Below are positions 13,851 to 56,300 of a DNA stretch of 64,000 nucleotides, one piece after another. The first letter of the stretch is position 1; every line of letters begins with the position of its first letter. This DNA is from Squalus acanthias (lineage: Eukaryota), in assembly GCA_030390025.1 (NCBI GenBank), contig CM059431.1, forward strand, positions 110,796,001 through 110,860,000, given 5' to 3'. Under the pieces are notes generated by a model. That model made no database searches and was not told where the DNA came from. It saw only the letters and a program-made list of their open reading frames with translations. The translations under genes were made by a program, and so were the position numbers.

Positions 13851-13853
13851 TAA

Positions 13854-31995: not shown

Positions 31996-32354
31996 GTGAC
32001 TGAATAAATCAAATTCTATTTTAACATGGAGTTCTAGGATTTTTATTGGTGTTTTGGGGATTGCATACTGTCATTCATCCATTTATGATTAGAGTCAATT
32101 GTTTTTGGTAACAAATTAACTCAAATTCTGTTTTTATTATGTGGTTTTTTTCAGCATTCTTACTTTTGTTTTGGTGGCTCATTGTCTGTTATTCCGTCAT
32201 TTCTGTGTGAAAACCACAATTAAGTGGCCTTGCTAAGAATATTTACCATATGGTTGTGGGTGTATTCTCTCTGCTATTTTTTGCTTTTTATCTCAATGAG
32301 CCTGTGTTTTACAAGTGACATATAAATCAGAAACTTTGCTGACCCTCTGAATGT

Positions 32355-33977
32355 TGTAGAGTTTCGCAATTATCGCGATTCAAATAATATGAGAGAAGCA
32401 GATTCAATTGATCATTTTATTAAACGAAATGCTGTCCTGATAATAAAGGACACAGAAGCCTGTAAAATGGCCACCGCGCATCGTGGCAGAAGCTTCCAGA
32501 GACACAGTGGGCAGACAAGATGGCGTCGAATATACATTCAGTATGAGATCGGATCATACTCGGTACACATTGAAAAGGCAGGATGCAACCCGTTTGCATC
32601 CTGAACAATAGCAATGATATAAGTGCTGGAATCGTTTCCTACGCACAGTAAGGATCATTGAACTGGGCCATCGAGAACCCATCCAGACACATCAATACAC
32701 AAATACCCCCCCGGCTCAACAATGAGAGAGACATTGGCGGGTGATTAAGCCAGTATTCGGGGGGCCCCAAAACCAGTCGAGGAGACGATTCATACACATC
32801 CTGGCTGGCTCAACAATGGAGAAGGTATTAACGGATAGTTGACCAGTTTCAGGTGTTACCGAAACCCGTTAAGAAGATAATCGCCCCATGCTGGGAGTTT
32901 TTGGGCGCCAAAATCACACAAAGAATAAACGTTTAGATTTGAGCGGGAGATAAGGCCGACAAAACAGTATAACTATAGAGGACAAATGTCCATCGGTCTC
33001 TTGACTCTCTCTCTCTCTTCCTGGACTCTTCCTTGACTCTCTCTCTCTCGGGCTGGACCCTCTCGGGCTCGCTTGGCTCTTGACTCTTCGCCGTGCTGGT
33101 CGGTTATTCGAGTGTTGGGTGGAGCTCAATCGGAACGAGCCGCCTCGACAGGGCAAGTAACAGGATACACCATCCCGAGCGTCGGTAAACGGTGTCCGGA
33201 CCCAGGGGCCCGAGTAACCAGAAGAAAGACGAGAAGAAAGACGAGAAGAAATTCCACGTGCCGCCGCGGTCAGTAAACCCCGACCGCGCCCGAAGTTATA
33301 ACGACAGAATCCATCTTTGAATTCTACAGACTACTACACGAACCGTTTTCTTTGAATTCTACGGACTACTCCACGATCCGGTCTGAATCCATCGACCACT
33401 TCATGACATCAAGGAATCTGGCTTACCTTTCATGGCAGCGAGAGTAAACAAGTGGGGTGCAGAAACCCTTACAACCACGTGACAGTCAGGCGCTGCAGCG
33501 AAACGAGCTGAGTGCCTCACTTTAAATTTCCGAAGTGAGCCGAGTGGTGAGCATGTTTTCCGATCCTACAAATCCAGACGTAGTTTAGGTATATTGAGGG
33601 AGGGTGGTTTTTCTAAGGTTAATGTATAATGTGTTCCCCCTTTTACGATGTGTCGTGTGTTCCCCATTTCCATAGACCAAGTTTTATGAACGTGTGTATA
33701 CTTGTACTCTCTTTGATCTGCGCCTATGACATGTATTTCATGATTTTAGATGCCATGCAATAAAGACATTCATTTCGTGCTATTCAACCAGGTCTATTTG
33801 AGTCTTTTTTTCTCTGCATTACTGCTCCTTGCATCTAAGTCCAGGTGTCAGAACCGTAAGGGCGAGTGGGTCGAACCACTCACAGGTGCTTATTGCAAAA
33901 GTCTGGCCGGAGACCAGAGCAAGCAATAGTATAGGCAACGAAGGCCTCACCTCGCACCAGTACCGTGACCCCTTACA
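32355..33977 (+). repeat. 5' LTR (1623 bp)
   Basis: Starts TGTAGAG and ends CCTTACA. Direct repeat of 44028-45650 (offset 11673) with about 13 substitutions counted by eye. AATAAA at 33759-33764. Confidence 0.97.
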
Positions 33978-33981
33978 GAAA

Positions 33982-35804
33982 ATGGCGACCGCAGCAGGAC
34001 CCTGGCAGCAAGAGAGTAATGTCTTAGACCCAGGTTTGAATAAACTAAATGTAATGGAAGAAAAGGTAGCCGACTATGTGTTTGGGAAAGTAAACCTGAC
34101 CAAACAGTGGATATGTGACCTACTGACGGATAGGCGTCCGCTAGACGCCGCCATCAGATGGACAGGTAGCAAAGATCATAAGAAGTCGGTAGAGAAAGCG
34201 GTCTGGCTGATGTGCTACAAGAAGCAAGTCCAACTTTCGGACCAGGTCATTGCAGCACAGGCAGCTCAGATCAGGAATTAGAAACAGAGATGGAGGAAAA
34301 GGTTACGGGAGGACAGAGACTGATTGCATCACTGAATGCGTTGCATCAGGAACGCCAAATAGTAGCCAACCACCACGAGACTAGGATCGATTACTTAGAA
34401 TGTCAGGTCACGGAAGCAAAATTAAGTGAGGGAAGGATTAAAGAACGGTGTATCCGCCTAGCTAACCAGATAAAGGCCCAGGAAGAAAGTTTGAGGGGAG
34501 TTAGGGCGGCATACAAGATGGCTCTCGAGGATAGGCATGAGGGAGCCGACCACAGTGTTTGCCAGAGGGAGATAGAGAACCTGAGAGAGGCCCTGAATAA
34601 GGCAAACGGCTTGGTGTGTCTCATCAGCCCGTCAGCGAGCCAGCCACAGGTAGGTAGGGAATTCCCAAAATCCCTACCGGGAAAAGCAGATGTGGTATCA
34701 ACCACTAAGCCCTCCGCGCCACCCAGCTATACAGAAACCTGGGTAGGGGAGGAAGTGGTGGAAATAGAGAAGAAGGTTCCCGAGGTAGGACAATCCCCGG
34801 AGGTAGTGTCGAGACCGGGACCGATGTGTCCGGTCCGAGGTCATAAGAGAGGCCCGAATGGGAACAATGGGGAAGACGGGGACATCCTGAACCAACTTGT
34901 AGTGCCCCACAGCTCACAGCAGCTGAGGGCAATGATCAGCCATGTCCGGAAGCTGTCCGAGTCAGGAGACCCTTCCGTGCATTTTAGAGAAGTAGAACAG
35001 ACCGCAGCGGTTAATGGCTGCGACAACGAGGAAAAGACCAAGATGTTGCTGTTCTCTTTAGATAGCTCAATCCTTCAGTGTCTCTCCGATGAGAGCAAGA
35101 GGGGAGCTAAGGGCTATGGGGATTTACGGGACGAGGTCCTAGAAGTGTTGGGGGCGGATGACGAAGGTCCGTTCGTCAGACTGGGTCAGACCGTGCAGAT
35201 GGAGCGAGAACCCCCACGGGTTTTCGCCGAAAGACTGTGGCCAGTATACCAGCGTAGCTGCCCAGGTGCGCCAGAGCGCCGCTACCTGGACGGTACCGGG
35301 AAAGCTCATTGGCTCAGGTGCATAGTAGCCAACAGCTTGCCAGCCGTCAGGGAGCAGGCCAGAGCGTGGTTTGATCCCACCAACCCCGAGACAACGGAGG
35401 AGTCTGTCCTGAGTCACCTCACCATAGGGTATCGGAACACTAGAAGCACGGGAGCGCGTCCCCTTAAGGGAAAGGTGCATGAAGCAAAGACAACAGCTCC
35501 GGCTCAGAAAGAGTGGCATCAGGAGGGAAATCGCGCCCCACAAACCAGTAGTGTTTGTTACGGGTGCGGGAAGGCAGGTCACTGGCGTAAAAACTGTAGG
35601 AATCCCTGGAAGGACTCCAGGGAAAAAGCTCCCGCAGTCCGAGCCCAAACGCCTGTCTCTGAGAGAGGAGCTGGTGTGCCTATCCATCCCGACGCGATCG
35701 AATCAATGTTAGGAGCCATGCGGTCTATTATGATTTCGCACGGGAGAGTGGCAGTCTTTACCGGCCCCACAGATGCCACAACCCCGCCCACCAGTACCCA
35801 ATGA
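33982..35804 (+). pseudogene. gag: gag (one frameshift near 34275)
   Basis: ORF 33829-34281 (from ATG 33982 or 34054) joins ORF 34212-35804 by restoring one base (IR|ELETE). Coiled-coil N-terminus, PSAPPSY at 34710-34730, capsid-like region, CCHC knuckle CYGCGKAGHWRKNC at 35556-35597. Confidence 0.88.
33983..34000 (+). promoter_or_regulatory. Primer binding site, probably tRNA-Arg(TCG)
   Basis: TGGCGACCGCAGCAGGAC lies 5 nt after the LTR. It matches 17/18 to the complement of the 3' end of vertebrate tRNA-Arg(TCG) as I recall it (...GTCCTGCCGCGGTCG-CCA); the mismatch is at a CpG. Confidence 0.8.
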
Positions 35805-38800
35805 CTAAAGCCCGCGCAGCCCGTCTATCTGTGTCCGCTCAGCTATGATGTGTGGAAAAGACCCCTGGTGGAGATGGAGGTAGAGAAGCAGAAGGGTAGT
35901 TACTTGTTGGACATGGGAGCTTCATGCACCGTGATTCATACAGATAGCCCCTTTGACTCACCACTGTCTACCAAGGTCCCATTCACATTAGCAGGGTTCA
36001 CAGGAAAAGAGCAGGCTGGCGCATTCTCCATTCCGCTCTCCATTCATTTAGGAGCACTCCACACCACATGGAAGTGCATCCTGATGAAATGGCAAGAGGG
36101 GGGTGGCAAAGGTATCCTCGGATCGGATCTCCTAGCGGAACACGGGATCCTCGTGGACCTTAGGAATCACTGTCTCTGGGGAGCCAAGGGTGGGAAAGGC
36201 AAGGTAGTTGTAATCCCAGGGAAGGAAGGAAAAGGGGCCCTGTGTACCATGAAGCCATCCGGAGGTTACGACCTCGGGCTTATGGTCGCGGATGTCCCAA
36301 CGGACATGCAAACGTACGTGTCAGATAATATGCACGCGTTTGCAACCCACAAGCACGATTGTGGAAGGGTTACCGGGTTTGAGGTCAGCGTAGACGGGGA
36401 CCCCATGACCCGACCCCAAAAGCAGTATAACTTCCCCAAAGAAGCAGAACCCGACATGGAGACAGCAATGTCCTCATTGGTGCAGCAGGGCGTGTTGAGA
36501 CCGATAGCCACACACGTGAACTCCCCATTATGGCCGGTAAGGAAGCCGGATAATTCATGGAGGGCCACGGTGGACTACAGAGTCCTTAACAGTAACATCC
36601 CCGCCTGCGCGCCCACAGTAGCAGCAGTTGCTGACCTAATAGGGAGTATCCCAGCGTCCGCGACCACGTTCACGGTGCTGGATATCTCGAACGGTTTTTG
36701 GTCCATCCCGTTGCGGCGAGAGGACCAGTACAAGTTTGCCTTTACTTTCAAAGGACAACAGTACACATGGAACTGTTTGCCACAGGGTTTTCACAACAGC
36801 CCCAGTATTTTCCATCAGTGTATGGCAGGAAGTTTAAAGGAGTTTAGTCAGCCCAATCAGATAGTGCAGTACGTGGACGACTTGCTCCTGTTCACAGACT
36901 CAAGGGAGGAGCATGGACCACTGTTAGCCGAGTTATTGGAGCTGCTAGCGAGAAAGGGTTTTAAAGTTAACCCTAAGAAAGCACGGATCGGTCAGCAGGA
37001 AGTAAAATTCCTGGGTCTGACCATTCGCGCTGGGGAAAGAGCCATAGATAAGGCTAGGAGGGAGTCGGTGCAGGAGTTACCGATTCCCAACACCATAACG
37101 GGTGTGAGGTCCTTTCTGGGACTGACCAGGTACTGCAGAGACTTCATCGAGGACTATGCGGCCACAGCAGCCCCGCTGCTCCGACTCCTCCATAAGGGAG
37201 TGGAGTGGTCTTGGGACGAGGGTTGTCAGGCAGCATTCGAGAAGTTAAAAAGGGATCTGCAGACCGCGCCAGCTTTAGGGGCCATAGATGGGGGGAAGGA
37301 GTTTTTCCTGGAGGTAGCTGCCAGCGGAGACAGCTTGAGCGCCGTGCTGCTCCAAGAGCGTCACGGCAGGCTGAGGCCAGTTGTTTATTCATCCAGGGTG
37401 TTAACGGATGTGGAAAGGAGTTTTTCCAACTGCGAAAGGCATCTTTTAGCCACGCATTGGGCTGTGAAAAGATCAGCGATCTTCACAGGGCTCTCTCCCA
37501 TCACTCTCCTCACCCATCACACGCCAACCAAGATGCTTCTGGATGGGAGGATTAAGGATGGGACCGTAAGCAGCGCTCGCATTGCGCGCTGGACCCTTCT
37601 CCTTTGCCAGATAGATCTCAGAGTTAAAGGTCTTTGCGAGCCCAAGCTCGCGGCCAACCTGGTATACCCCGGAACAGCCCACCGGTGTTCGGTTGAAGGG
37701 GTGTGGGAGGTCAACATAGGTTTGTGGGCCGGGATACATCCCACGGGCCGCGAGATTTATGTCGATGGTTCCAGCACAGTGTCCGCTGGCGAACGACTCA
37801 CAGGGTGTGGAGTTTATGACCCTGCGGCAGACCTTGCCTTGGCAATTAAACTCCCCAGCACCATGAGCGCGCAGCAGGCTGAGCTGTCTGCGGTGGCGTA
37901 CATAGTTACCCACCCAGAGATCTTCCCAACTCCATACACGATTTGTTCGGACAGTATGTTTACGTACAATTCGTGTACGGAATACCTGGCCATTTGGTCC
38001 CGCCGTGGTTACACCTCCGCGGACGGGCGACCTTTAACGGTGAAGCCCTTGCTGGAAAAGATCCTAGCAGCAGTGGGGGAGGAAGGGGAGATTTTCATCC
38101 ACAAGGTGAAGGCTCACTCCTCCACCGAACCCCGCGGGGAGGGCAACCAGCAGGCGGATGCGCTAGCCAGGGAGGGTGCCCGTAACGGCATTTTCTGGGA
38201 CCCCTATGGACCCGGACCCGTGGCAGCGATCCAAGGCAGGGAAGGGAATCCCGGGAACACCAGGGTAGCACTGCCCCTAGACCTCAAGACCGTCCAGAGC
38301 CAGGATCCCGCCCTAAAGGCAGTTCTCAGAACTATTACTGAGGGCAAGCATGTAGAGGGCCCGTACAGTACGGCAACCCTCTCCGTTAAAGAAGGCATGC
38401 TGTTCCACGAGGAACAGTGGGTTGTGCCGCAGCAGCACAGGAGGGAATTCCTCCAGCTGGCTCATGAGGGGCCAGGGGCAGGACACCCCGGGCCTGAGGT
38501 TACCTGGCAACGGGTAGAGCAGGCGTGATGGTGGCCGGGACTCAGGGATCAGGTCCACGAGTTCTGTGCAAGCTGTCTTGTGTGCGCTGCCAACAACCCA
38601 GACCCCCAGAAAAGGAAAGTGCACATGGGGCACATCAGGAGGGTGGAGGGACCATGGCAGTCGATACAAGTCGATTAAATAGGGCCCCTGCCCACCACCC
38701 AGGGAGGCTATAAATACTGCCTCGTCCTGGTGGATGTGTTTTCCAAGTGGGTAGAAGCCTTTCCCTGTAGAACAGCTACGGCGCTGGGTACTGCCAAGAT

Positions 38801-40118
38801 CTTGGTCCGGGAAGTGTTCTCGCGGTGGGGACTCCCCCGTTTCATGGAGTCAGACCAAGGGAGTCACTTCACCGGCCAGGTGATGCAGAACACCCTCATG
38901 CTTTTGGGCATTGAAGGGAAGTGGCACGTAGCGCACAATCCCCAGTCATCAGGGATTGTTGAACGCATGAACCGGACCCTCAAGGAAAAACTGAGGAAAG
39001 AGACTATGAACTCGCCCCAAAAATGGGCGGAGGTCCTGCCTCTAGTCCTCATGGGAATCCGGGCCAGCCAGTCGAAGAGTACGGGGTATTCCCCGTACGA
39101 GGTGATGACTGGGAGGATCATGCGAACCCCCACCCATGTACTAGCCCCGGTGCTCACTGAGGATCAGCTCCAAGAGGTGAAACGGGACAAGTTTGTCCAG
39201 ACCCTCTTGGAACGCCTGAAGCAGGTTTACGAGCAGGCGGCTGGGAACATGGGAAGACAGCATCAGGGCAATCGCCTGTTGCTGGAACCCCGTAAGAAGC
39301 AGGAGTGGGAAGTCGGAGATCAGGTCATGGTTAGGAACTATGCCAGAGTAGGGAGTTTGGAGCCGCTGTATATGGGACCCTACAGTATTGTAGAGAAGGC
39401 GAGTCCCATGGTGTATGCCGTAAAGGTACCCCGGCGCACAAAATGGTTCCACATTAACCAGTGCAAGCTGTATAAACCGGGTGCACAGGGGCCAATCACA
39501 GGGGCCAAACCTGCGAGTGGGGACTCTCAGCCCCGGGTAGAACCGCAGGGCACACAGGCCGGTAAAGCAGCCTGCGTGAGGGGAGAGGACATTCTGGAAA
39601 AGTGTAGGATCTTTTCTTTTTCTTGGGATTCAGATGAGGAAGCGCTCGGAGGGCTCAACCAAGTTAGTGACCCGGTCGGAGAGGTGGTGGGGTCGGAGGA
39701 TGGAGGTTCCGCCCTCGACCCAAGCATAGGGGAGGTAGGGATTGCGAGCGGAGATCCACTTACTGTAGAAACAAGTAGGGTGGAGTCGGAAACCGCAGAT
39801 CCCGAGCCCAGGGGTGCGGAGCCAGGGGAGACAGAGCCGGCAGCTGTGGTGGGACCACAGGCTGTGACGGTGGGAGTCCCGGTCCCCGGTCCATCGGCCC
39901 TGGAGGCCTTGCCCAAGGTGGCCCTTCGCAGGTCGAGTCGGACACCCCAGCCCAGGAAGTTGTGGTCAGATCCCTCGTACACCCCCAGGCGTAAGTCCAA
40001 GGCAGCCCAGGGAGGTCCCAGTCCCCGCTCGGCAGCGACAGGCTGCGGCGGATCAAAGACAAGGGTCAGTGTCCCCCCGCCACGGGGAACAGCTCGTGGC
40101 AGCCTTTGCAGGATTTAG
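35805..40118 (+). pseudogene. pol: pol polyprotein: protease-RT-RNase H(degenerate)-RNase H-integrase; two in-frame stops (38526, 38676)
   Basis: One reading frame throughout. Motifs: LLDMGAS (protease, DTG>DMG), LPQGFHNSP and YVDD (36870-36881), YVDGSS..AQQAEL..SDS..KVKAH..GNQQADALA, HHCC (AHEGPGAGH..CLVC), VD*IGPLP..SDQGSHF..GIVERMN, GPY module. Confidence 0.95.
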
Positions 40119-40182
40119 CTAGGCCGCCCTGGGAACGGGCGGCGCTGTACAGTTATTTTAGGAGGATAAGTTTAAGTTTATA

Positions 40183-41076
40183 GGGGTAAAAATTCACTTG
40201 GTTGCGCCTCCCGTTAGCGCCTTAAGAGGGCGCTAATGGGGCGTTAAGCCGCTAACGCCCGGGCGCAGCGCTGTTTGCGCCGCTCGAGAACTTAACTTGA
40301 GATTGTGCGGCGGCGCTAAAACTTACCGCTGCGACCACCTGCGCGCGCAGATTGTGACGTCATTCCATGGTGCAACGCCCTTGGGGCGCCCCGTAGCGGA
40401 AATTGAGTGGCGCCCCCTGCCTTACCGCCTGGCGCTTCCAACGACCGGAAGACTGGAACGTTATCAATCGCTGTGGGGCTGGGGGGGGGCGCTATTTAAA
40501 GGGGGCCTCTTCCTGTCTTTTATTGTTGGTGGCATTTTTGAACTACGCATTCTGAGAGAGAGAGGGAGAGACTTCTGGAGAGATTCAACGTTGTGTGAAG
40601 GAGTTTTGGGTACTGAGCAGCACTTTGCAGGTTCATTTTGATTTGCCATTCCTTGTATCGATTTAGCAGAGACTGTGGGAGCTGCACTCTGAGCTCTTTG
40701 CCTGGTACTCTCCATTGTTCTTTCCAGCATATTTGATGTGCAAGTCTCTCCAGGCCGAGATTCAAGGCTGCAATGAACAGGATGTGGATGGAAAGCAAGA
40801 TTAACCATCCCCTTTAAGAACTGGCCCGTGCCATTGTGTGTGTGTTCCATTGCTGACTGACATTACATGAGCTTCGCCAGCGCTCCGAGTTAGCGCCTCA
40901 CTGCTCGGCCTTTGCGCCTTAAGAGAGGTGTGCAGCGCCTGCTTTAGCGCTCCACTCACCTCCCGGGGCGGTAAAAGTGAAGTTTCCTGTCAGTGCCGAT
41001 AATTAGCGCCAGGCGCTAATATTTGCGTCCAGACGATATTTGCGCCCCAAATGGGGCGCGACCTAATTTCTACCCC
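40183..41076 (+). mobile_element. Non-autonomous PIF/Harbinger element (894 bp) nested between pol and env
   Basis: TIRs GGGGTAAAAATT / AATTTCTACCCC, ATA TSD. Both ends closely match the ends of the 49571-53679 element. Confidence 0.93.
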
Positions 41077-41257
41077 ATAGTGTTTTAATATCAGGTTAAG
41101 ATTGTAGTTTAATTTCATAAGTAAATGGTAAAATGATGGGAGTTAGTGATAGGAATAGTTAAGGTCTATCCAGGATACATGTCTTGTACGTGAGACGAGG
41201 TCAAGGGACCCGCTCACCCTTCACAAAAGCCAGAGACTCTTGGGAGGCTGGCTACAT

Positions 41258-41275
41258 CATTTTATCTGATCACAG
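41258..41275 (+). promoter_or_regulatory. Candidate env splice acceptor
   Basis: CATTTTATCTGATCACAG|G ends 12 nt upstream of the env ATG. Confidence 0.5.
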
Positions 41276-41287
41276 GAACCAGGAGAT

Positions 41288-43640
41288 ATGGAAAGGATTC
41301 TGGTAGTGCTCGCAACGATCGGATATGGATTGGCCTCTCGGGGCCTCACCAAGGATGTCGTTGTGTTCGGTTGCTCCGGGGACACGGCCCCCATCGCGAC
41401 GGATGGGACCGGGGAGCGAGAGGCTGAGGAAACCGCCACTTATTTCCACAAGGGAAGGTGGCCGGGATGGCTGGGAACGAATTCAACGGAATACTCCAGC
41501 GCATCCGGGTTTGCGTACCAAGAGACTTCTTTACTGTGTCCCAGGGTGAGGATCGTTGCACCCAGAATCAGCGTCACCGTCGGCAAAAGGATTTGTTTGG
41601 TGTGCAATGGGAACGTCCCATTGAGCCGATGGTGGTGGTTACGGAAGTTAAGCAAGACTATGAGAAATTCCTCGGTCGAGTGGGAGCGATTGGGTAACAA
41701 TACCCATCGGACAATTACGGGGACTAACGGACAATTGAGAGTCTGTTGGGACAAATGGTGGGAGCCGGATGAGGGAATATATGTGTGTATGTGGGGATCG
41801 ACGTACGTTTGCCCCAAGGGTATATCCATATTTTTCCTACAACAGTGGCAGGATGCCAGGAAAGGGATGAGGTGGGACGTCAGCTCCTGGGGGTGCGGAG
41901 CTCCATTCTCCCCGATCCCGGTAAATGCCACTGAACTCATCACGCGCCCACGCAAGTCTCCGCCCACGATTCCGGTGGCTTTGGCTCAGGAGGAAGGGTG
42001 CCCTAAAACCACTAAGGGGCCCGGGAATGGTCTGGTACTGGTGCCAACAGATCAGATACTGTATCAAGGGGTACATTACGCGGTGGCCTCGGTGATTCTA
42101 AATCTCACCGAGGTGCATTTGCCAGAATGGTGCCCCAAAGAAACGGAAAAATTGTACCAGGTCCTGTTAACAAACATGTTCAGGCAGTTTTATGAGTTTG
42201 ATTTTGCAGAGGTTGACAAAACAAGCTTATACACCACACCACACGAAGTTTTGGGTCAGGTGGGGAGACAAAGAAGGGGTGCTGTGAACGATGTGTTCAC
42301 TGCTTTTAATACGGGAACATCTGTGGTCAACGCTCTAGATAATGTGGAGCTGCAGACACAGATCAACGGTTTAAAGACACAGTTAAAAAGCATCCTCACA
42401 AACGAGAACAAGGTAGTAGGGTCTGAGTTACATGAGGACCAGGCCATGACACTACACTTAAAAGAGATTATAGCAGAGCTGGAGAAGCATGCGAGAACGG
42501 TAAATGCCCTGATCAGGGAAGATCGAAATGCATCCGATCAAGCTGCGCAGAACGAGGTGTGCGTACTATACGGGGCGTGGTTACTGGGTGAGGGCCGCAG
42601 TAATTTGCAGGATTTAAAACAAGGTTTGGTCCCGTCCTGGATAAGCAACAAACACCTGCAGGCGCTCCACCCTTTTCAGAACGCATTAAGCCCGTGCCAG
42701 CTCAGGCTAGCCTCAGAGGCATACCCAGTCCCAGTGGACTGCGGACAGTCAAATCACACTATCATGGGTATAGTAGTACGGATGCCGGTGTTGGGCGACA
42801 CAGCAAAGCCCGCCCCGGTGTACAGGGTGGAGAACATTGGAGTCATTCAGGGGGGAGCCCACATTCGCTATGCAGCGGTCCCACCTTACGTCATCCGCTG
42901 GGAGCAAACGATGACAGGTACCGACCTCTCGGGTTGTCGTAGCAGGGGAGCACACATCATACTGTGTCCCCAGCACTTGAATGCCTTTTTAATACCACAA
43001 TGCGGGTTCAGAACGGCTGGCTGCGAAGTCCATGAATTGCACCATGGAAGCAATGACACAAGATCATGTGCCCCCACAGGTGGCATACATCGGGGGTGGA
43101 ACGTATTGCGTTACCACTGCAGCGCAACACTACCAGCATGGACAGCACAGCCGGTGTCCGGTGAGTGACAGCAGTTTCTGTTTTAAACCCAGGGCTGAAG
43201 TTCAAGTGGCACAACAGCGAATTGTCCCAATCCCTGAACCATCTACCGTTCACCTCACTGTAAAAGAGAATTTCACAGACTTGCAGCGATTCGTCGCGCA
43301 TTTCGGGTACATCATTCCCCCTCTCCCTGAACACCGCACCAAGATTTTAAAAGCCGTCATGGTATCACAGAAACATTTTTACACCCTGGAACAGAAGACT
43401 GTAGAGATAGGGGCAGAGGTATTGGACATAGTAACCCCACCGTGGTGGGATCTGTTCACTAATATTGAGGTCCCGTCATGGATCAGGATAGCCTCCCACA
43501 TTTTGGTAGTATGTCAAGTTGTAATTGTAGTGTACCTGTTGTTCGTGCACTGCAAAAGAGGCAAACGCCTCACGAGGCAGGAGAACACAGGGGAGTGGAG
43601 AGAATGTTACGTGCGCGTGAACGAGGAAAGTACCGCGTAA
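41288..43640 (+). pseudogene. env: env: signal peptide, Ig-like domain, class I F-like fusion protein, TM anchor; one frameshift near 43020
   Basis: ORFs 41288-43168 and 43032-43640. Hydrophobic N-terminus, furin site RQRR at 42266-42277 followed by heptad repeats, Cys-rich ectodomain, TM segment ILVVCQVVIVVYLLFV, basic cytoplasmic tail. Confidence 0.88.
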
Positions 43641-44015
43641 ACTGCCAGGATGACGCCCCTCCATTTTACTGTGTGTGTTTTTGTAGTTGTTGTAGTTATA
43701 AGTATTTGTGACTAAGTTTGGAATTTTTGTATTTTTAAAACAGTTGGTTTAATTGTTTTTCCTTTTGTAATAAAACAGGTAGTGCGAGAGGCATCGGCCT
43801 TTTGCACCTGGAAGGCGAATACGCAGTGTAAGTTTAAAGGCAATGCTGCCTACGATTTGTCCAAGATAGACAATGTGTTTTTCTCTGGGAAATGAGGACT
43901 ACATGTGTCATGGAGGCCATAGATAGTTTAATTACCGGGAGTGTTTGGATGTGGAGAATCGGGATAATTTGCTCACCAGCATTTAATTGATACGATAAGC
44001 GGAGTTATTCGCATC

Positions 44016-44027
44016 AACAGGAGGGAC
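44016..44027 (+). promoter_or_regulatory. Polypurine tract (short)
   Basis: AACAGGAGGGAC immediately 5' of the 3' LTR. Confidence 0.7.
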
Positions 44028-45650
44028 TGTAGAGTTTCGCAATTATTGCGATTCAAATAATATGAGAGAAGCAGATTCAATTGATAATTTTATTAAACGA
44101 AATGCTGTCCTGATAATAAAGGACACAGAAGCCTGTAAAATGGCCGCCGCGCATCGTGGCAGAAGCTTCCAGAGACACAGTGGGCAGACAAGATGGCGTC
44201 GAATATACATTCAGTATGAGATCGGATCATACTCGGTACACATTGAAAAGGCAGGATGCAACCCGTTTGCATCCTGAACAATAGCAATGATATAAGTGCT
44301 GGAATCGTTTCCTACGCACAGTAAGGATCATTGAACTGGGCCATCGAGAACCCATCCAGACACATCAATACACAAATACCCCCCTGGCTCAACAATGAGA
44401 GAGACATTGGCGGGTGATTAAGCCAGTATTCGGGGGGCCCCAAAACCAGTCGAGGAGACGATTCATACACATCCTGGCTGGCTCAACAATGGAGAAGGTA
44501 TTAACGGATAGTTGGCCAGTTTCAGGTGTTACCGAAACCCGTTAAGAAGATAATCGCCCCATGCTGGGAGTTTTTGGGCGCCAAAATCACACAAAGAATA
44601 AACGTTTAGATTTGAGCGGGAGATAAGGCCGACAAAACAGTATAACTATAGAGGACAAATGTCCATCGGTCTCTTGACTCTCTCTCTCTCTTCCTGGACT
44701 CTTCCTTGACTCTCTCTCTCTCGGGCTGGACCCTCTCGGGCTCGCTTGGCTCTTGACTCTTCGCTGTGCTGGTCGGTTATTCGAGTGTTGGGTGGAGCTC
44801 AATCGGAACAAGCCGCCTCGACAGGGCAAGTAACAGGGTACACCATCCCGAGCGTCGGTAAACGGTGTCCGGACCCAGGGGCCCGAGTAACCAGAAGAAA
44901 GACGAGAAGAAAGACGAGAAGAAATTCCACGTGCCGCCGCGGTCAGTAAACCCCGACCACGCCCGAAGTTATAACGACAGAATCCATCTTTGAATTCTAC
45001 AGACTACTACACGAACCGTTTTCTTTGAATTCTACGGACTACTTCACGATCCGGTCTGAATCCATCGACCACTTCATGACATCAAGGAATCTGGCTTACC
45101 TTTCGCGGCAGCGAGAGTAAACAAGTGGGGTGCAGAAACCCTTACAACCACGTGACAGTCAGGCGCTGCAGCGAAACGAGCTGAGTGCCTCACTTTAAAT
45201 TTCCGAAGTGAGCCGAGTGGTGAGCATGTTTTCCGATCCTACAAATCCAGACGTAGTTTAGGTATATTGAGGGAGGGTGGTTTTTCTAAGGTTAATGTAT
45301 AATGTGTTCCCCCTTTTACGATGTGTCGTGTGTTCCCTATTTCCATAGACCAAGTTTTATGAACGTGTGTATACTTGTACTCTCTTTGATCTGCGCCTAT
45401 GACATGTATTTCATGATTTTAGATGCCATGCAATAAAGACATTCATTTCGTGCTATTCAACCAGGTCTATTTGAGTCTTTTTTTCTCTGCATTACTGCTC
45501 CTTGCATCTAAGTCCAGGTGTCAGAACCGTAAGGGCGAGTGGGTCGAACCACTCACAGGTGCTTATTGCAAAAGTCTGGCCGGAGACCAGAGCAAGCAAT
45601 AGTATAGGCAACGAAGGCCTCACCTCGCACCAGTACCGTGACCCCTTACA
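44028..45650 (+). repeat. 3' LTR (1623 bp)
   Basis: Same length and termini as the 5' LTR. Preceded by the purine-rich tract and followed by the ATGT TSD. AATAAA at 45432-45437. Confidence 0.97.
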
Positions 45651-45916
45651 ATGTGTACATTTAACTTCATGTTTGAAGAAAAAGGGAACTTGCACTTACA
45701 GCGTCTTTCATGACCGCAAGATGTCCCAAAGCCAATGAAATACTTTTGAAGTGCAGTCACTGTTGTAATGTAGGAAATGCGGCAGCCAGTTTGTGCACAG
45801 CAAGCTCCCACTAACAGCAATATGATAATGACCAGATCCAATAAAGATGCACTGGTATGCAAATGTCATGCTCAGGGTGATGTGGGCGAGTAGTATGTTG
45901 GAGCATCAATGTGCTG

Positions 45917-46740
45917 AGCCATGGAGCAGTAATGTGCAGGGCCATGGAGCAGTAATGTGCAGGGCCATGGAGCGGTACTGTGCAGGGCCATGGAGCGGTA
46001 CTGTGCAGGGCCATGGAGCGGTAATGAGCAGGGCCATGGAGCGGTAATGAGCAGGGCCATGGAGCGGTAATGAGCAGGGCCATGGAGCGGTAATGAGCAG
46101 GGCCATGGAGCGGTAATGAGCAGGGCCATGGAGTGGTAATGAGCAGGGCCATGGAGTGGTAATGAGCAGGGCCATGGAGTGGTAATGAGCAGGGCCATGG
46201 AGCGGTAAAACATAGGGCCATGGAGCGGTAATGTGCAGGGCCATGGAGCGGTACTGAGCAGGGCCATAGAGTGGTAATGAGCAGGGCCATGGAGCGGTAA
46301 AACACAGGGCCATAGAGTGGTTATGCACAGGGCCATGGAGCGGTAACATGCAGGGCCATAGAGTGGTTATGCACAGGGCCATGGAGTGGTACTGAGCAGG
46401 GCCATAGAGTGGTTATGCACAGGGCCATGGAGTGGTAATGTGCAGGGCCATGGAGCAGTACTGAGCAGGGCCATGGAGTGGTTATACACAGGGCCATGGA
46501 GCGGTAATGTGCAGGGCCATAGAGTGGTTATGCACAGGGCCATGGAGCGGTACTGAGCAGGGTCATGGTGCGGTAATGAGCAGGGCCATGGAGCGGTAAT
46601 GTGCAGGGCCATGGAGCGGTAATGAGCAGGGCCATAGAGTGGTAATGAGCAGGGCCATGGAACGGGTATGTACAGGGCCATGGAGCAGTAACGCACAGGG
46701 CCATGGAATGGTTTAACACAGTGCCATGGAGTGGTTATGC
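45917..46740. repeat. 23-bp minisatellite, ~36 units
   Basis: Unit CAGGGCCATGGAGCGGTAATGAG with patterned variants. Confidence 0.95.
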
Positions 46741-47374: not shown

Positions 47375-49570
47375 AGATGGACCTGGAAGTAAAGGTTCTA
47401 AATTGGGGGAAGGCCGATTTTAATATGATAAGGCAGGATCTGGCCAAAGTGGACTGGGATCAGCTACTTGTAGGAAAATCCACATCAGAGCAGTGGGAGT
47501 CATTCAGAAAGGAAATAGAGAGAGTACAGCGCCAACATGTTCCCGTAAAGGTCAAGGGTGGGACCAACAAGCCCAGGGAACACTGGATGTCAAGGAATAT
47601 ACGAGAATGGATTAGGAAAAAAAGGGAGGCTTTTGGCAGATACAAAGGACTAAAAACAGTGGAAGCCCTAGAGGACAATAGAAAGTGCAGGGGGGTACTT
47701 AAAAAAGAAATTAGGAGAGCGAAGAGGGGGCATGAAAAAACACTGGCAGGCAAAATAAAGGAAAATCCCAAGGTGTTTTATAAGTATATTAAGGGCAAGA
47801 GGATAACCAGGGAAAGAGTAGGGCCCATTATGGACCAAAGTGGCAATCTGTGTGTAGAGCCGGAAGATGTAGGTGAGGTTTTAAATGAATATTTTGCATC
47901 TGTGTTCACTATGGAGAAGGACGATGTAGGCATAGAAATCAGGCAGGAGGATTGTGATATACTTGAACAAATTAGTATTGAGAGGGAGGAGGTACTAACG
48001 GTTTTAGCGGGCTTAAAAGTGGATAAATCCCCAGGCCCAGACGAGAATGTATCCCAGGCTGCTGTGTGAGGCAAGGGAGGAGATTGCAGGGGCTCTGACA
48101 CAAATTTTCAGAACCTCTCTGGCCACAGGGGAGGTGCCAGAGGACTGGAGGACAGCTAATGTAGTACCATTATTCAAGAAGGGTAGTAGGGATAAACCAG
48201 GGAATTACAGGCCAGTGAGCCTAACATCAGTGGTAGGGAAATTATTGGAAAAACTTCTGAGGGACAGAATTAGTCTCCACTTGGAGAGGCAAGGATTAAT
48301 CAAGAATAGTCAGCATGGCTTTGTCAGGGGGAGATCATGTCTGACCAATTTGATTGCATTTTTCGAGGGGGTGACTAGGTGTGTGGATGAGGGTAGTGCA
48401 CTTGATGTAGTCTACATGGACTTCAGTAAGGCATGGGAGACTGGTCAAGAAGGTAAGAGCCCTTGGGATCCAGGGCAATTTGGCATATTGGATCCAAAAT
48501 TGGCTTAGTGGCAGGAGGCAGAGGGTGATGGTCGAAGGTTGTTTTTGTGACTGGAAGCCTGTGTCCAGTGGTGTACCGCAGGGATCAGTGCTAGGTCCCT
48601 TGCTGTTTGTAGTGTACATTAATGATTTAGATATGAATGTAGGAGGTATGATCAGTAAGCTCGCAGATGACACGAAAATTGGTGGAGTGGTAAATAGCGA
48701 GGAGGGAAGCCTCAGGCTACAGGATGCTATAGACGGGTTGGTCAGATGGGCAGAACAGTGGCAAATGGAATTTAACCCTGAAAAGTGTGAGGTGATGCAT
48801 TTTGGGAGGACTAACAAGGCAAGGGAATACACAATGAATGGTAGGACCCTAGGAAGGACAGAGGATCAGAGGGACCTTGGTGTGCATGTACATAGATCCC
48901 TGAAGGCAGCAGGACAGGTAGATAAGGTAGTTAAAAAGGCATATGGGATACTTGCCTTCATTAGCCGAGGCATAGAATATAAGAGCAGGGAGGTTATGAT
49001 GGAGCTGTACAAAATGCTAGTTAGGCCACAGCTGGAATACTGTGTGCAGTTCTGGTCGCCACACTATAGGAAGGATGTGATTGCATTGGAGAGGGTGCAG
49101 AGGAGATTCATCAGGATGTTACCTGGGCTGGAGCGCTTCAGCTATGAAGAGAGACTGGACAGGCTGGGGTTGTTTTCCTTAGAGCAGAGAAGGCTGAGGG
49201 GGGACCTGATTGAGGTGTACAAAATTATGAGGGGCATAGATAGGGTAGATAGAAAGGAACTTTTCCCCTTAGTAGAGGGTCAATAACCAGGGGGCATAGT
49301 TTCAAGGTAAGGGGCAGGAGGTTTAGAGGGGATTTGAGGAAAAAAAATTTCACCCAGAGGGTGGTTGGAATCTGGAGCTCACTGCCTGAAAGGGTGGTAG
49401 AGGTAGGAACCCTCACAATATTCAAGAAGCATTTAGATGAGCACTTGAAATGCCATAGCATACAAGGCTACAGACCAAGTGCTGGAAAATGGGATTAGAA
49501 TAGACAGGGCTTGATGGCCGGCGTGGACACGATGGGCTGAAGGGCCTCTTTCTGTGCTGTATAACTCTAT
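47375..49570 (+). mobile_element. 5'-truncated CR1 LINE (ORF2 RT remnant); tail resumes at 53680-53704
   Basis: YRPVSL, MDFSKA, GVPQGSVLGP, LADD and RPQLEYCVQFWSP motifs; (CTATGA)n tail split by the Harbinger. Confidence 0.93.
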
Positions 49571-51554: not shown

Positions 51555-53320
51555 CTACTTTTTGCCCTTCGAGGGTGATCTCCTTCCCTTGCGCACTTCC
51601 CCCCTTCTAACCCTACTGCTCCTCCGTAATGGGACCTCAGTGGCTGCAGCAAGGCTGGTGGAAGGCTGCTGCTCGTCAGACCCTGACACTGCAGATGCCC
51701 CTGAAGGACGGCCTCGACCAGTTCTGGGCCTGGAGGGCCCAGCTGCAGACTGCACCAACTCTGCATGGGCGGCAGCAGTCTGTCCTACAGGCGGTGGCAA
51801 GTGCAGTGGAGAAGTGACAGTGTTGGCAGCAGGAATGCTGTCATCGTGAGAGAGGACAGCAACTCCCTGCTCGCCCGACACACTGGCACTCCCACGGGGC
51901 AGCACTTCAGCATCCGGAGCAATCTGCTGGAGAACAGATTGCTGGCCTGCTGCGGCGCGGTGACAGCCCCGGGGACATGTGAACGAACCATCGAGGTTGG
52001 CAGCAGTCAGTGCTCGCGTGGCCTCAATCTGAGTCTGCATGAGAGCAGTCAGAGATGGGATCACGGCAGCCAGTGACTGAATTGCAGCACTAAGCGTTAG
52101 TGTGGCATCCGCCTGTGCTACAGCGAAGTGCTCCACACTCCTTGCCAGTGACTCAATGCATTCGGGCACCCTTCCCACTGCACCCATGAGCTCAGTGTGC
52201 ATGCCCACCGCCTGGGTGTTCATTTCTGCGATCAGCCGCTCCTCCTCTGCGTCCATTGCAGTAGGAGTCTCTGGCATACTCTCCCTCTGGGGAGAAGGCC
52301 CCCGTTCTTCCCTACCCCAATGGCATTGCTGCAGCCCGCTGGGTCCTGGAGCTTCACCCTCATCAGACCCTTCCCCCCTGCTCCCCTCCAGGGAAGGCGT
52401 GTTCCCAGTGTGGGCATGGGCTTCCTCGGGAGAGGGTGGCACTGATGCTCCGGCTTCCTCTTCCTCCTCGGCTGCAGCTTCACTCCCACTGGCAGCTTCA
52501 GGGCCCGTCTCCTCAGCTGGTGAATCACCATCTGAAAGCAGGGAGGTACAAGAGTGGCTTTAGCGTGAGGACAGGGTGGCAGTAAGGGAGGAATAAGTGC
52601 AGCGAGTTAGCAAGTTGGATTGAAAGTGTCAAAGGCTGGTGTTGTGAGGGACAAGTGGAAGGACAGAGGACAAAAAGGTGATGACCTTACCATTGCTGTC
52701 CAGAACGGGGTCGGCGTCTCCAGTGGCGACGGGACCGATCACCCGGCTTGCCACAATCCTGTGGACGCGCTCCTCAAGATCGCTGAGGGGTTGCAGCTGA
52801 GGCCGCCCTCCACCTGTCCGTTGCTGCTGTCTCCGATTATGCGCCAGCTTGGCCTGTAAGAAAAAGGACAGCATCTGAGTAAATATACAGCCATGGTCTT
52901 GCCTGATGTGCCTCCCATAGGTGAATAGCCCTTACTGTATGCAAAGTGTGGAATGTGTGTGTGTGTTTCATGAAAGGGCCATAGGTGTTGGATGAGTGTT
53001 GTGCATTGGGGTTTTAAGACCCTCTGGCCATAGAGTGAGGTTGAGATGGAGGGATGGAGAGGTATTGAGAAAAAGCCACTCACCCTGACGACCCGAGTGA
53101 GGTCGTTGAACTTTTTGCGGCATTGAGTATGGGTCCTGGGCACCATGCTCCTGGAGGAGACGCTCTGAGCCACCTCCCTCCACACTCTTCTGAACTCGCA
53201 TGGCAAAGGCCTCCTGCCACTCTCAGGGAAGAGTATACATCTTCTGCGCTCCACCGCGCCAACCAGAGCATCCAAGGCCCGCTCGGTGAAGCGATGAGCT
53301 CGTTCTCTCACCCTCTCCAT
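51555..53320 (-). CDS. Harbinger Myb/SANT-like DNA-binding protein, 3 exons (53320-53084, 52853-52691, 52531-51555), ~458 aa
   Basis: RFTERALDALV..W..VA..QCRKKFNDL Myb/SANT motif. GT-AG introns with compatible phases (0, 1) and no stop in the spliced frame. Confidence 0.8.
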
Positions 53321-56300
53321 CCTTGGCAGCAAAATGGATTCACAGGTCTCTCCAGGCCGAGATTCAAGGCTGCAATGAGCAGGGTGTGGCTGGGGAGCAA
53401 GTTGGCCCCCCCCGCTTTAAGAAGTGGCCGGCGCCAGTGTGTCTGTGTTCCCTCGCTAACTGGCAGCAGCTGCGCTGCGCTCGCGCGCTGAGTTAGCGCC
53501 TCACTGCTCGGCCTTTGCGCCTTAAGACAGGTGTGCAGCACCTGATTTAGTGCTCCACTCACCTCCCGGGGCGGTAAAAGTGAAGTTTCCAGTCAGTGGC
53601 GATAATTAGCGCCAGGCGCTAATATTTGCGTCCAGACGATATTTGCGCCCCAAATGGGGCGCGACCTAATTTTTCCCCCTATGACTCTATGACTATGACT
53701 ATGAGTGTAAACTTGTGCTTGGTCTGACAACACAGTTCATCTTTGTTCTCCCCTTTGTGTCTCAGTAATAAATTAAATCAGTGTGGCAGTAACATGATGG
53801 TATCAATTGGGTGAGCATGGTCACTTGCTGCATAACTATATTCCATTGAGGGCTGGCGTTAAAACAACGCAACCTGTCTGATTATACAGGTCCCTGAGCC
53901 AGTCAGGGGCCCCAAGAGGATCCATTGATTAATTTAAGGATTGAGATAAATCAATCTGGACTTTACCACTGTAAGGGCCCCCAAACCAAACCTTTGCATG
54001 GGCAGATATCTGAGACTTGCGCACGATAGTACAATTGAGGGAGACCTCAGGAGTGAACCTGTTATATTAGAGCTCACTCATGAATCTAATCTTGAGATAT
54101 GTGTAATCCCTTATTTATTGAAGATATTTTAATGGGGAAGGCTCTAAGCAAAGCCATCACTTGCTCAAATTTATCAGTTAAAGAGCTGTTGAATTAAGTG
54201 GCCATAAAATGGAGCAAAATTACATTTTCTTCTGACATGAGAATGGAAGGATTGTTTAATGCAAAGATGGGAACCAATTTTCTTTTCAATTAATCAATGG
54301 TTTGCACATACTAGTCCAATCTAGCTATAGAAGATTCATGGCTAATTAACTGCACTTGCAATTTATGGAAAACAAACAATTTAATGATGACATTTCCTTT
54401 TACACATGGCCCGAATGTGACAGTTAACCCATTTAGCAATTTTTTTCCACAGAGAATATAGTTTCCTTCACAGTGCAATGACAAATGATCACTATATAAA
54501 TACAAGTTTTAAGTGTGGGAATTCTCCAGGAGGTATAAGGTGTACTTGCTGTGAGGCATATAAAAGACGAATCTGTGTTACTTACCAAATTGTCTTCTGA
54601 CACTACATATACTTGCGTGTTTACATATTCTCTACATATTCTATCAGTATGTAACGTATATTCGAATGTCTAAAAATCTTCTAATTTCTCTAAATCAGCT
54701 CCCATTGCAGATGTCGTTCTCCCCTTGTTCACTTGTTCCCTATGCATTTGGCACAATTCCAACTCTATTTGCCCTAAATTATAAGCTGATGGAGCCTTCC
54801 GTTACTTACCTCAATGCACATTTCCACTGTAGAGTTGACTGGCAACTGGGTTTGATGTTTATGCTTATTGCCGGGAGCTGTAGTCTTACTTCCATATCTT
54901 ATTAACTTGCAATAGTCAGGGAACCGTTAGCTCCTCTATGGATAGAGTTACCTGTAGCTAATCCAGCAGAAGCAGCTTTTGCCTGTTTATGGTCAGATGT
55001 CTAAGAAAATCATCAGCCATTAGTTTCTCTAGCTGGTAAAGTGTAATGCTTTGTTGCTATTTGCTCCCAGGAAATGTTAATGTTAAGTGTAAGATTACTG
55101 AGTTGCTTTGTACAGGATGACTCTTTTTTAAATTGAAGGGCTAGCAAATAAATTAGCAAATCTTCTGTGGCATTACTCACAGAGAGATACATTGTTTTAT
55201 AAAGGGAGGGTTATTATGTAATTCACCTGCTGTGCAAAGCTTACAAAATTGTATCAGTCTTCCTTGAGTGCATAATCTAGGCTGACACTCCAATCCAGTG
55301 CTGAAGGAGTGCTGCATTGTCAGAGGTGCTGTCCTTCAGATGACTCTGATTTGAACTGCCTGTTTCTCACTATTCAAATAGATGTTAGATATCCCACGGC
55401 ACGATTTGAAGTCGAGATGGGAGTTCTCCTGGTATCCTGGCCAATGTTGCTCCCTTAGCTAAACTCTCAAAAAAATAGATTAACTGGTCTCATTTCACCC
55501 TGAAAAGCACAATTGCCATGAAACAGGCGAAGGAGAAGAAGCAAACCTACCCTAAGCAATGGGAGAAGAGGATTCCAACGATCTACCATCTTATGACAGT
55601 CAGTGAATATGCAACATGCAGGTATCCTGTCTTGGCTGTGTGCTTACTGTTTATTCCTCGCCACATTTTATGGGGTACAAAGGAGATCCATTGAAATGAC
55701 AACAATACAGAGTTCCAGGCCAAAACATGGACAAGCCTGTAATATATGTTATAACACTCCAACAAGCTTGCAGTGCAATGCTGCTAAGATGCATTGTAGA
55801 ATTGAGCAAAATGTGAGCAGGCTTACCTTGACAACCTTTCTGAGACCAGTAAATGTCTTCCCTACCTGCTCCCAGGAACTGGTCACAGTTGAGATAGCAT
55901 TCATTGCTTCTGCTACTTTCATCCTGGTTACTTTTGTTCCCACATGCTATGACTAGGACCACCATTCTCTCCGGCACTTCTTATAGCAGGTTCTCCAAAG
56001 CTCCATCCTGCAAGGGTGCTATATAATGACCATGGTTTTGTTACCCATCGGTAACAGTACAGTTTTAGAATTAACAGCAGCCCTTTAAGAGCTGCTGGCA
56101 CTAGATAATTTTCTACTTTACTTCATGTGTGGTGTGCCTGGAGCACTGAGATATTTATGTAACTTGTGGTTCCAGCATAAGGTCAGCTCCTCGAACTCCA
56201 AGCCCATGTAGTGCCCAAAGAGCAGAACTACCAGTGCCAAAGCACTGGGATCGCATTATCGGCCCAATGCTTTACCAGGTTTAAGTAACGGAAACTTTAC

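Follow-up and report, generated by a model that had tools for sequence, protein, structure and literature searches.

The 64,000-nucleotide stretch of the Squalus acanthias genome analysed here (positions 110,796,001 to 110,860,000 of the forward strand of contig CM059431.1, assembly GCA_030390025.1; hereafter the window, with positions counted from its first letter) holds, at 32355-45650, a complete but lesioned provirus with the layout LTR-gag-pro-pol-env-LTR, LTR standing for long terminal repeat. We put at about three in four the probability that this provirus is one defective member of an endogenous retrovirus (ERV) family that has multiplied recently and on a massive scale, belongs to a deep-branching retroviral lineage other than the lokiretroviruses and carries a Loki-like envelope protein (Env) of the type of the paramyxovirus fusion protein F. 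An initial annotation of the window had taken the element for a member or close relative of the lokiretroviruses; as laid out below, the kinship holds for the envelope, but not for the reverse transcriptase (RT).

Lokiretroviruses stand outside the canonical retroviruses and have an Env whose sequence resembles that of paramyxovirus F (PMC7947760), and the Env of foamy viruses, which are canonical retroviruses, is described as F-like in structure with no sequence similarity (PMC11468914). The family described here joins the two, in that its polymerase lies on the canonical side, while its Env is linked by profile to that of the lokiretroviruses, more weakly to foamy Env and to F, and has the fold of F. 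It also places retroviruses with F-type envelopes in cartilaginous fishes, where the published lokiretrovirus screen was negative. Whether one ancient F-type gene or several captures lie behind these envelopes can be tested with shark, frog and coelacanth sequences.

Fold and relatives of the envelope protein

The order of parts in Env is that of an F protein with an addition in front. Namely, the chain opens with a signal-like segment and an N-terminal domain of some 240 residues that has no confident model; an F2-like part, the furin-type site RQRR and a fusion-peptide-like stretch are next, followed by one long heptad helix, beta-rich domains and a membrane anchor (Table 1). An alignment of 19 sequences of the family shows a conserved R-x-K/R-R motif, then a fusion-peptide-like stretch rich in G, N, S and T, heptad helices, conserved cysteines and a C-terminal anchor. 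In a model of the first env frame (580 aa) that AlphaFold2 built with this alignment, residues 243-310 and 390-570 have predicted local distance difference test (pLDDT) values of 70-90. A Foldseek search of the PDB with the model returned 176 matches at E<=1e-3; all matches listed are paramyxovirus or pneumovirus F proteins, the best being F of human parainfluenza virus 3 (hPIV3; 7.9e-10). VIA-align, run against 48,161 representatives, placed post-fusion F of Newcastle disease virus (NDV) first (Z 9.1, root-mean-square deviation 4.2, 214 residues) and prefusion foamy-virus Env (8rm0) third (Z 8.0, 197 residues), with helical proteins that match over the long helix only standing between the two. 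Among the predicted viral structures in BFVD, the top matches are lispi-, arli- and chu-like glycoproteins, paramyxovirus F0 and baculovirus F, with feline foamy virus Env at rank 41 and walleye epsilonretrovirus Env at rank 50. The F-protein organisation that the initial annotation had read from the frames is thus seen in the domain layout and in all three structural searches, including the AlphaFold2 and Foldseek route that it had proposed as a check.

Sequence profiles give the order of kinship. The 19-sequence Env profile scores 53.9 and 52.6 bits against the two Loki-type Envs (E 2e-16 in a set of 346 sequences, over profile positions 37-419), and with its three frog sequences removed, so that only chondrichthyan ones remain, it still finds Loki-type Env at 39.6 bits (E 4.3e-12). 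Foamy Env scores 18-22 bits, all 12 foamy Env frames being among the matches (E 1e-6 to 0.13), and an hhalign comparison of the Env alignment with a 12-sequence foamy Env alignment gives a probability of 81.5% (E 1.1e-5, 179 columns). Against PDB sequences, the best match of the profile is one F0 chain, colinear and at E 0.001. Env is therefore of the F type, and the closest to it is Loki-type Env, followed by foamy Env and F at about equal distance. Since foamy-virus Env is also F-like, an envelope of this type is not unique to the lokiretroviruses. Other routes added little: a single-sequence Env search of PDB sequences gave chance matches only, a search of the ESM Atlas gave no usable match, and an alignment-based word search for further Env relatives added close ones only.

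Relatives of Env at 50% identity or more were found by word-based and exhaustive protein searches only in cartilaginous fishes, namely in the skate Rhinoraja (78%), the sawshark Pristiophorus (70-74%) and Scyliorhinus; more distant ones occur in Mustelus, Chiloscyllium and Heterodontus and, at 20-22%, in the frogs Pelodytes and Mantella. Taken by themselves, these relatives make a cartilaginous-fish host likely but do not point to a shark in particular. The Chiloscyllium relative is named 'Ig-like domain-containing protein' in UniRef (P0136), and the variable N-terminal part of Env may in some lineages contain a captured Ig-like receptor-binding domain. In two public gene models (P0126, P0004), pieces of the Env family are fused to C2H2 zinc-finger and 'Niban 1-like' proteins; these fusions are probably annotation chimeras across ERV insertions. 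Finally, the Env profile has faint colinear matches in the record of snakehead retrovirus (SnRV; L009 6131-9532, E 6e-5) and in a 12.7-kb fish retrovirus (L023 5962-9648, E 8e-4), both in a set of 338 frames, and the envelopes of these two viruses and of the walleye epsilonretrovirus may also be of the F type.

As to function, the layout suggests a class I fusogen of the paramyxovirus-F type, in which furin would cleave at RQRR between the F2-like part and an F1-like subunit made of the fusion peptide, heptad helices, beta domains and anchor; this subunit would then drive fusion, and the N-terminal domain of about 240 residues would presumably bind the receptor.

Position of the polymerase and origin of the envelope

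The closest relative of the window Pol is a 1145-aa protein at 84% identity, followed, at 38-42% identity over 96% of the 907-aa frame, by proteins of frogs and the coelacanth that carry the names 'NYNRIN-like' or 'Gypsy retrotransposon integrase-like 1'. Among solved structures, the RT-RNase H part matches gammaretroviral RT best (212 bits), then foamy protease-RT (165-175) and Ty3 (135), and the integrase (IN) core matches the integrase of prototype foamy virus (PFV; 74 bits) and that of Ty3 (68) best, far ahead of HIV (41). The initial annotation had listed a YVDD RT, two RNase H domains and an integrase core reading VD*IGPLP, all of which were found, by Pfam and by motif. The RT motifs of the window, LPQGFHNSPSIFH and VQYVDDLLL, are of the canonical kind (LPQGFHNSP..., QYVDDLLL), as opposed to the CPFGY.NSPAEF and IYVDDIL of most printed lokiretroviral consensus rows (PMC7947760 supplement).

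For the trees, reference retrovirus genomes were taken from IMG/VR, with class II viruses picked by motif patterns; the isolates labelled gamma-, epsilon-, alpha/beta-, delta- or lentivirus-like are ones that we take to be such by their genome sizes and motifs rather than by name. Foamy loci were collected by integrase pattern, one being confirmed by PF03408 and the other 11 being 50-91% identical to that one. Loki-type sequences were sought with a back-translated Loki RT motif, which gave 0 matches in viral contigs and 3 in a metagenome scan. Of these, L113 has gag, a 1745-aa pol and a 568-aa env frame ended by the contig edge, and L112 carries gag, a pol split into two frames and an env frame of 413 aa. 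Their RT rows resemble the printed Loki rows, and their Envs match PF00523 at E 1.2e-5 and 2.2e-3, below the Pfam cut-off; a salmonid Loki Env is reported to match it at 2.2e-7 (PMC7947760). The SnRV record was identified by an RT row equal to the SnRV row printed in the same paper.

The RT-core tree (81 rows, 300 columns aligned by hidden Markov model, LG+G4, 1000 ultrafast bootstraps, rooted on 19 Ty3/gypsy proteins) sets the Loki-type contigs as sister to a clade with 100/99 support, whose 59 rows include the window and every canonical retrovirus sampled. The branches that meet in a polytomy at the base of this canonical clade are SnRV, the foamy viruses, two lone proteins, one clade with 97/87 support and one group with 87/83 support. 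The 97/87 clade comprises every row labelled gamma-, epsilon-, alpha/beta-, delta- or lentivirus-like and leaves the window outside, while the 87/83 group consists of the window clade, the proteins from frogs and the coelacanth and three unnamed proteins. A second tree of RT plus tether (66 rows, 388 columns) repeats the 100/99 branch, here around a canonical clade of 45 rows, and again leaves the window outside the clade (99/97) that holds the gamma- and epsilon-like rows. In its best topology, the group of the window, frog and coelacanth proteins (support 63/93) stands opposite all other canonical rows with bootstrap values of only 59-66%, and a quick RT tree built without Loki hints at the same placement. 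Over RT plus tether, identity to the window is 50-52% for the frog and coelacanth proteins, 38% for SnRV, 35% for the Loki-type sequences, 34% for the gamma-sized isolate and 31% for the foamy viruses, the last being the lowest among the non-class-II reference retroviruses compared.

Is the element, then, a true lokiretrovirus, the first from cartilaginous fishes? The initial annotation had named RT placement beforehand as a test of lokiretroviral membership, and the RT lies on the canonical side of the 100/99 branch. Indeed, in approximately unbiased (AU) tests, trees joining the window to Loki are 45 log-likelihood units worse (p 0.0015), and those joining a 12-row window group to Loki are 28 units worse (p 0.027). 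What is more, the Loki RT motifs are absent, and gag and pol are separated by a stop, as against the single Gag-Pol polyprotein of Loki-Xtr. A search of the host genome with Loki-type RT gave 105 scored matches at 36-40% identity only, the three best having the window-type motif; no Loki-type RT was seen in this search, which agrees with the published screen, where 0 of 4 chondrichthyan genomes were positive (PMC7947760 supplement); the initial annotation, too, knew of no cartilaginous fishes among the reported hosts. The three best loci (L119, L120, L121; 38-39%) are sister families with the RT motif LPQGFHNSPSIFH / IQYVDDLL, and several families of this lineage seem to be present in the genome. 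What speaks for a lokiretrovirus is the similarity of Env to Loki-type Env, an integrase 43% identical to the Loki-type one and placed with it in the basal polytomy of the IN tree, a coiled-coil-like stretch at the gag N-terminus that recalls the Spc7/SMC part of Loki-Xtr, and the dual RNase H, which is not discriminating, since canonical retroviruses share it. Taken together, we consider membership in the lokiretroviruses very improbable.

Assignments within or next to the canonical retroviruses can be narrowed as well. The window shows the features tabulated for class I (ERV1) elements, namely a 4-bp duplication, a gag zinc finger and a GPY motif (PMC4299795); its RT, however, lies outside the clade of the gamma- and epsilon-like isolates in both trees (97/87 and 99/97). 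ERV4, characterized by a 5-bp duplication, no gag zinc finger and no GPY/F motif (Chong et al. 2014, PMC4299795), differs from the window in all three. A Ty3/gypsy errantivirus-like retrotransposon with an F-type env would be suggested by the baculovirus F among the fold matches and by the wide occurrence of F-type env in invertebrate Ty3/gypsy elements, as stated in a preprint (bioRxiv 10.1101/2023.10.26.564294). The same preprint reports no vertebrate homologue of the invertebrate elements, the window has a dual RNase H with PF00075, and the RT is separated from the 19 Ty3/gypsy proteins by a branch with support of 100/99 to 100/100, so that the RT trees refute this assignment and we give it practically no weight.

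A more serious candidate, still improbable in our estimate and only slightly less so than a true lokiretrovirus, is a foamy-like ERV (class III, spuma-related) of the kind reported in sharks, whose Env would be a very divergent foamy-type one. The F-like structure of foamy Env, the structural match to 8rm0, the hhalign result and the presence of every foamy Env frame among the profile matches all fit this, as does the best solved match of the IN core, PFV integrase; moreover, the catshark 'ERV-Spuma' was named from Pol alone, with no Env domain found in it (PMC10699275, 2023). However, PF03408, the foamy Env family, is matched neither by the window at E<=0.1 nor by 17 relatives at E<=1, while a foamy control (L036) scores E 0, and Env scores far higher with its Loki-type counterpart (40-54 bits) than with the foamy one (18-22 bits). 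The RT stands apart from the seven foamy isolates in all trees, never as their sister, the base being a polytomy. In addition, the window has a Gag zinc knuckle, and only one stop codon interrupts the frame shared by its gag and pol, whereas foamy viruses are not known to have a Cys-His box in Gag or to make Pol as a Gag-Pol fusion. The family thus falls into none of the named groups with which it could be compared.

The canonical-side RT together with an Env and an integrase nearest to Loki implies that either an ancestral F-type envelope was kept or the 3' half was exchanged with a Loki-like virus. In the IN tree, built from 72 rows and 237 columns, the window, the Loki-type and the frog and coelacanth sequences all fall into the basal polytomy of a 98/98 retroviral clade; identity of the window IN is 43% to Loki-type, 36% to SnRV, 35% to gamma-sized and 30% to foamy IN. 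A recombinant, in which canonical gag-pro-RT-RNase H was joined to an integrase-env half from a Loki-like virus, concerns origin, is compatible with the anatomy and is a tentative possibility. In its favor, the RT is nearer to SnRV (38%) than to Loki (35%), whereas the IN is nearer to Loki (43%) than to SnRV (36%), and Env is nearest to Loki; this gradient along the genome leans slightly towards exchange or towards uneven rates. On the other hand, the IN tree is a polytomy, an integrase replacement in the other retroviruses, as argued in PMC7947760, would give the same pattern, and no Loki-type RT of a possible donor was found in the genome. The frog and coelacanth IN are likewise close to Loki (42-51%), and any exchange would therefore be old.

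The other way to account for the same facts, to which we attach a similarly modest likelihood, is vertical inheritance. Namely, the shark/skate-frog-coelacanth lineage could be a surviving intermediate between Loki and all other retroviruses that still has its original envelope. The F-type fusogen would then go back to the ancestor that Loki shares with this lineage, the foamy viruses and perhaps SnRV and the epsilonretroviruses, and the gamma-type and other orthoretroviral envelopes would be later replacements. If so, the foamy env gene would descend from this same fusogen with greater divergence, and the 'unexpected link' of foamy Env to F would reflect descent rather than separate captures; the four-scenario question posed by the lokiretrovirus paper would thereby be settled.

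That said, several points weigh against our preferred reading of a non-Loki lineage with a Loki-like F-type envelope. The Env model has a mean pLDDT of 53, and its first 242 residues are without a model. PF00523 is not matched by single Envs (0 of 17 relatives at E<=1, and neither of the two env frames of the window at E<=0.1), and the window Env alone matches Loki-type Env weakly (13 bits, E 4e-4 in the 346-sequence set). Whether the sister of the window group is all other canonical retroviruses, SnRV or the foamy viruses comes out as a polytomy with supports of 57-87%. The 12-row group of the AU test was named after seeing the tree, and its p of 0.027 is not strong. The Loki sample consists of three contigs from ray-finned-fish-like lineages and left out lamprey, eel and frog Loki, Odin and the published foamy-like ERVs. 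Finally, read-through of the gag stop, promoter activity of the LTRs and receptor binding by Env enter the reading as predictions.

The provirus and its copies in the host genome

The initial annotation had described a complete, near-intact provirus with a 4-bp target-site duplication, and this description stands. The two LTRs, with termini TGTAG...TTACA and ATGT on either flank, differ by 13 mismatches, 12 of them transitions, and 0 gaps (99.2% identity), and all features of the canonical Retroviridae layout are present: TG..CA LTRs, a tRNA primer-binding site (PBS), gag-pro-pol-env and a short target duplication. The coordinates are collected in Table 1.

Table 1. Features of the provirus and its insertion, in window positions
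Feature	Position	Strand	Remarks
5' target-site duplication	32351-32354	+	ATGT
5' LTR	32355-33977	+	1623 bp, TG...CA ends
Primer-binding site	33983-34000	+	18/18 complementary (CCA added) to host tRNA 3' end
gag, frameshifted	33982-35804	+	frameshift inside 34182-34281; stop TGA 35802-35804
pro-pol	35805-40118	+	907-aa and 479-aa frames, same phase
Protease motif LLDMGA (DMG)	35904-35921	+	weak Pfam RVP
RT	36537-37025	+	RVT_1 E 5.7e-36; YVDD 36870-36881
Tether (degenerate RNase H)	~37212-37604	+	RT_RNaseH_2/RT_RNaseH
RNase H	37752-38180	+	PF00075 E 1.1e-19
Integrase	from ~38424	+	Integrase_H2C2 and rve; GPY motif 39375-39383
In-frame pol stops	38526-38528, 38676-38678	+	second = 'QVD*IGPLP', just before IGPLP
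Low-complexity pol tail	39500-40118	+	
Miniature inverted-repeat transposable element (MITE)	40183-41076	.	894 bp, between pol and env, not viral; terminal inverted repeats GGGGTARAAATT, TA/ATA duplication
env, F-type	41288-43640	+	one frameshift near 43020-43030, located by homologues continuing into second frame
env furin-type site RQRR	42266-42277	+	
env fusion-peptide-like stretch	42278-42337	+	
env membrane anchor	43479-43547	+	
Purine-rich tract abutting 3' LTR	44016-44027	+	10/12 purines; presumed polypurine tract, function predicted
3' LTR	44028-45650	+	1623 bp
3' target-site duplication	45651-45654	+	ATGT

The gag reading is spread over two overlapping frames (33802-34281 and 34182-35804), while two other copies have a single frame of 639-658 aa. 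Its N-terminus has the coiled-coil-like stretch mentioned above, with a weak Pfam match to HAUS-augmin3 (E 0.021), and further on there is one CX2CX4HX4C zinc knuckle (35556-35597, Pfam zf-CCHC). The first ATG of the upstream frame (33982-34000 region) overlaps the PBS by two bases, and Gag would start there or at an ATG downstream. In pol, Pfam finds two RNase H-type domains in the stop-to-stop frames. Gag and pol share one frame across the single gag TGA, a layout common to the SnRV record and the gamma-sized isolate genomes, and this suggests that Pro-Pol is made by read-through. In the replication scheme that the layout predicts, the LTRs would supply promoter and polyadenylation signals, a host tRNA would prime minus-strand synthesis at the PBS, to which its complementarity is established, and read-through of the gag TGA would yield a Pol supplying protease, RT, tether, second RNase H and an integrase making 4-bp duplications.

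The tRNA gene that matches the PBS belongs to a tandem array found on a different contig; ARAGORN calls it tRNA-Arg(tcg), with an unusual length of 92 nt. The array (L115) has a period of 1623 bp, each unit combining tRNA-Ser(gct) with the 92-nt tRNA; the units are mostly one base off the PBS complement, and one is exact. That the period equals the LTR length is presumably a coincidence.

This copy is replication-defective, owing to the frameshifts in gag and env, the two pol stops, the aberrant DMG protease motif and the MITE, all of them lesions already noted in the initial annotation. The MITE is missing from the same site in two other provirus copies and is present alone elsewhere in the genome, and its contig depth is very high, in the thousands. 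It is short and non-coding and has terminal inverted repeats, a short duplication and many copies, as expected of a MITE; no superfamily was assigned.

The host genome searched comprises 3.71 Gb in 3882 contigs. A search with the LTR gave 4620 first-look candidates, of which 41 matches were scored, 40 at 92-100% identity; at least 40 copies of env DNA are present at 97-100% identity, and at the protein level 75 env copies, scored out of 9,984 candidates, are 93-100% identical. With regard to the intact copies that the initial annotation had recommended looking for, 29 of the 75 scored copies have an open 789-aa env frame with no stop in the match, as counted from the table of matches. With 40 or more near-identical genomic copies of the LTR and likewise of env, the provirus pattern is not due to chance, and an assembly artefact joining gag-pol and env from different elements is unlikely, many copies sharing the layout. 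The divergence of the LTR pair (Kimura two-parameter distance 0.0081) corresponds to about 1.8 million years at the mammalian rate used in the lokiretrovirus paper (PMC7947760) and to about 18 million years at a ten-fold slower rate, as assumed for the elephant shark (Han, PMC4422223). In two copies (L108, L109), pol is missing (window positions 35746-39499) except for its final 680 bp, while gag and env are present. Derivatives with deletions have therefore also spread, which implies mobilisation in trans. Among contigs of four runs with a guessed RNA label, none joins the leader to env.

The surroundings of the provirus appear repeat-rich. About 270 bp past the 3' LTR there is a 23-bp satellite (45918-46707, consensus GCCATGGAGCGGTAATGAGCAGG, 34 copies, 85% matches), with a strongly G-skewed stretch downstream of it at 46-50 kb. 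A non-LTR retrotransposon on the minus strand (10871-14819) has three successive frames coding for a GDSL-type esterase, an AP-type endonuclease and an RT fragment, and another RT fragment and a Myb/SANT-like DNA-binding frame occur at 48411-49286 (+) and 52739-53416 (-). Among the 8 long frames outside the provirus no host genes were found; there are retrotransposon and Myb/SANT-like frames instead.

Relation to known retroviruses and fusion proteins

A literature search found no report of a non-Loki ERV with a Loki-type Env; a J Virol 2023 paper on cartilaginous-fish endogenous foamy viruses may cover related elements. In particular, the window family may be the same as CmiERV lineage I, a shark lineage near SnRV (Han 2015, PMC4422223), as the catshark 'ERV-Spuma' (PMC10699275) or as these endogenous foamy viruses.

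With the lokiretroviruses (Wang & Han 2020, PMC7947760), the family shares the LTR-gag-pol-env layout, the dual RNase H, an integrase of similar type and an Env with a furin-type site, fusion peptide, coiled coil, anchor and kinship to paramyxovirus and pneumovirus F. It differs from them in the roughly 240 extra N-terminal residues before the F2-like part of Env, where Loki-Xtr has a short piece before the cleavage site, and, as described, in the position and motifs of its RT and in the stop between gag and pol. The frog and coelacanth ERVs (P0006-P0011) have the same RT motifs and hold the nearest Pol relatives outside the cartilaginous fishes; the comparison covers Pol, and the frog Env relatives in Pelodytes and Mantella could belong either to these Pol genes or to frog lokiretroviruses. 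SnRV is the best match among the sampled isolates for protease-RT-RNase H (368 bits) and the most identical there over RT plus tether, with similar RT motifs, gag and pol in one frame and a deep position in the basal polytomy. It is not the sister of the window in any tree, and its Env, a 1134-aa frame, is the faint match noted above.

Foamy viruses have an F-type 'class Ib' Env with extra receptor-binding mass (Fernandez et al. 2024, PMC11468914), and they share with the window remote profile similarity in the central fusion-subunit domains and a similar IN core. The extra domain of foamy Env is described there as lying between the two subunits, whereas the extra residues of the window Env are N-terminal; the lack of PF03408, the Gag zinc knuckle, the single gag-pol frame and the RT placement set the window further apart. 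Finally, the F proteins of paramyxoviruses and pneumoviruses (PF00523), with hPIV3, NDV, respiratory syncytial virus, Nipah and Langya F as the best structural matches, have the same domain order as the window Env: F2-like part, cleavage site, fusion peptide, heptad repeat A, beta domains, a part like heptad repeat B, and anchor. What distinguishes the window Env from them is an identity of 9-16% in the structural alignments, no direct Pfam match, a large N-terminal extension and its residence in a reverse-transcribing element.

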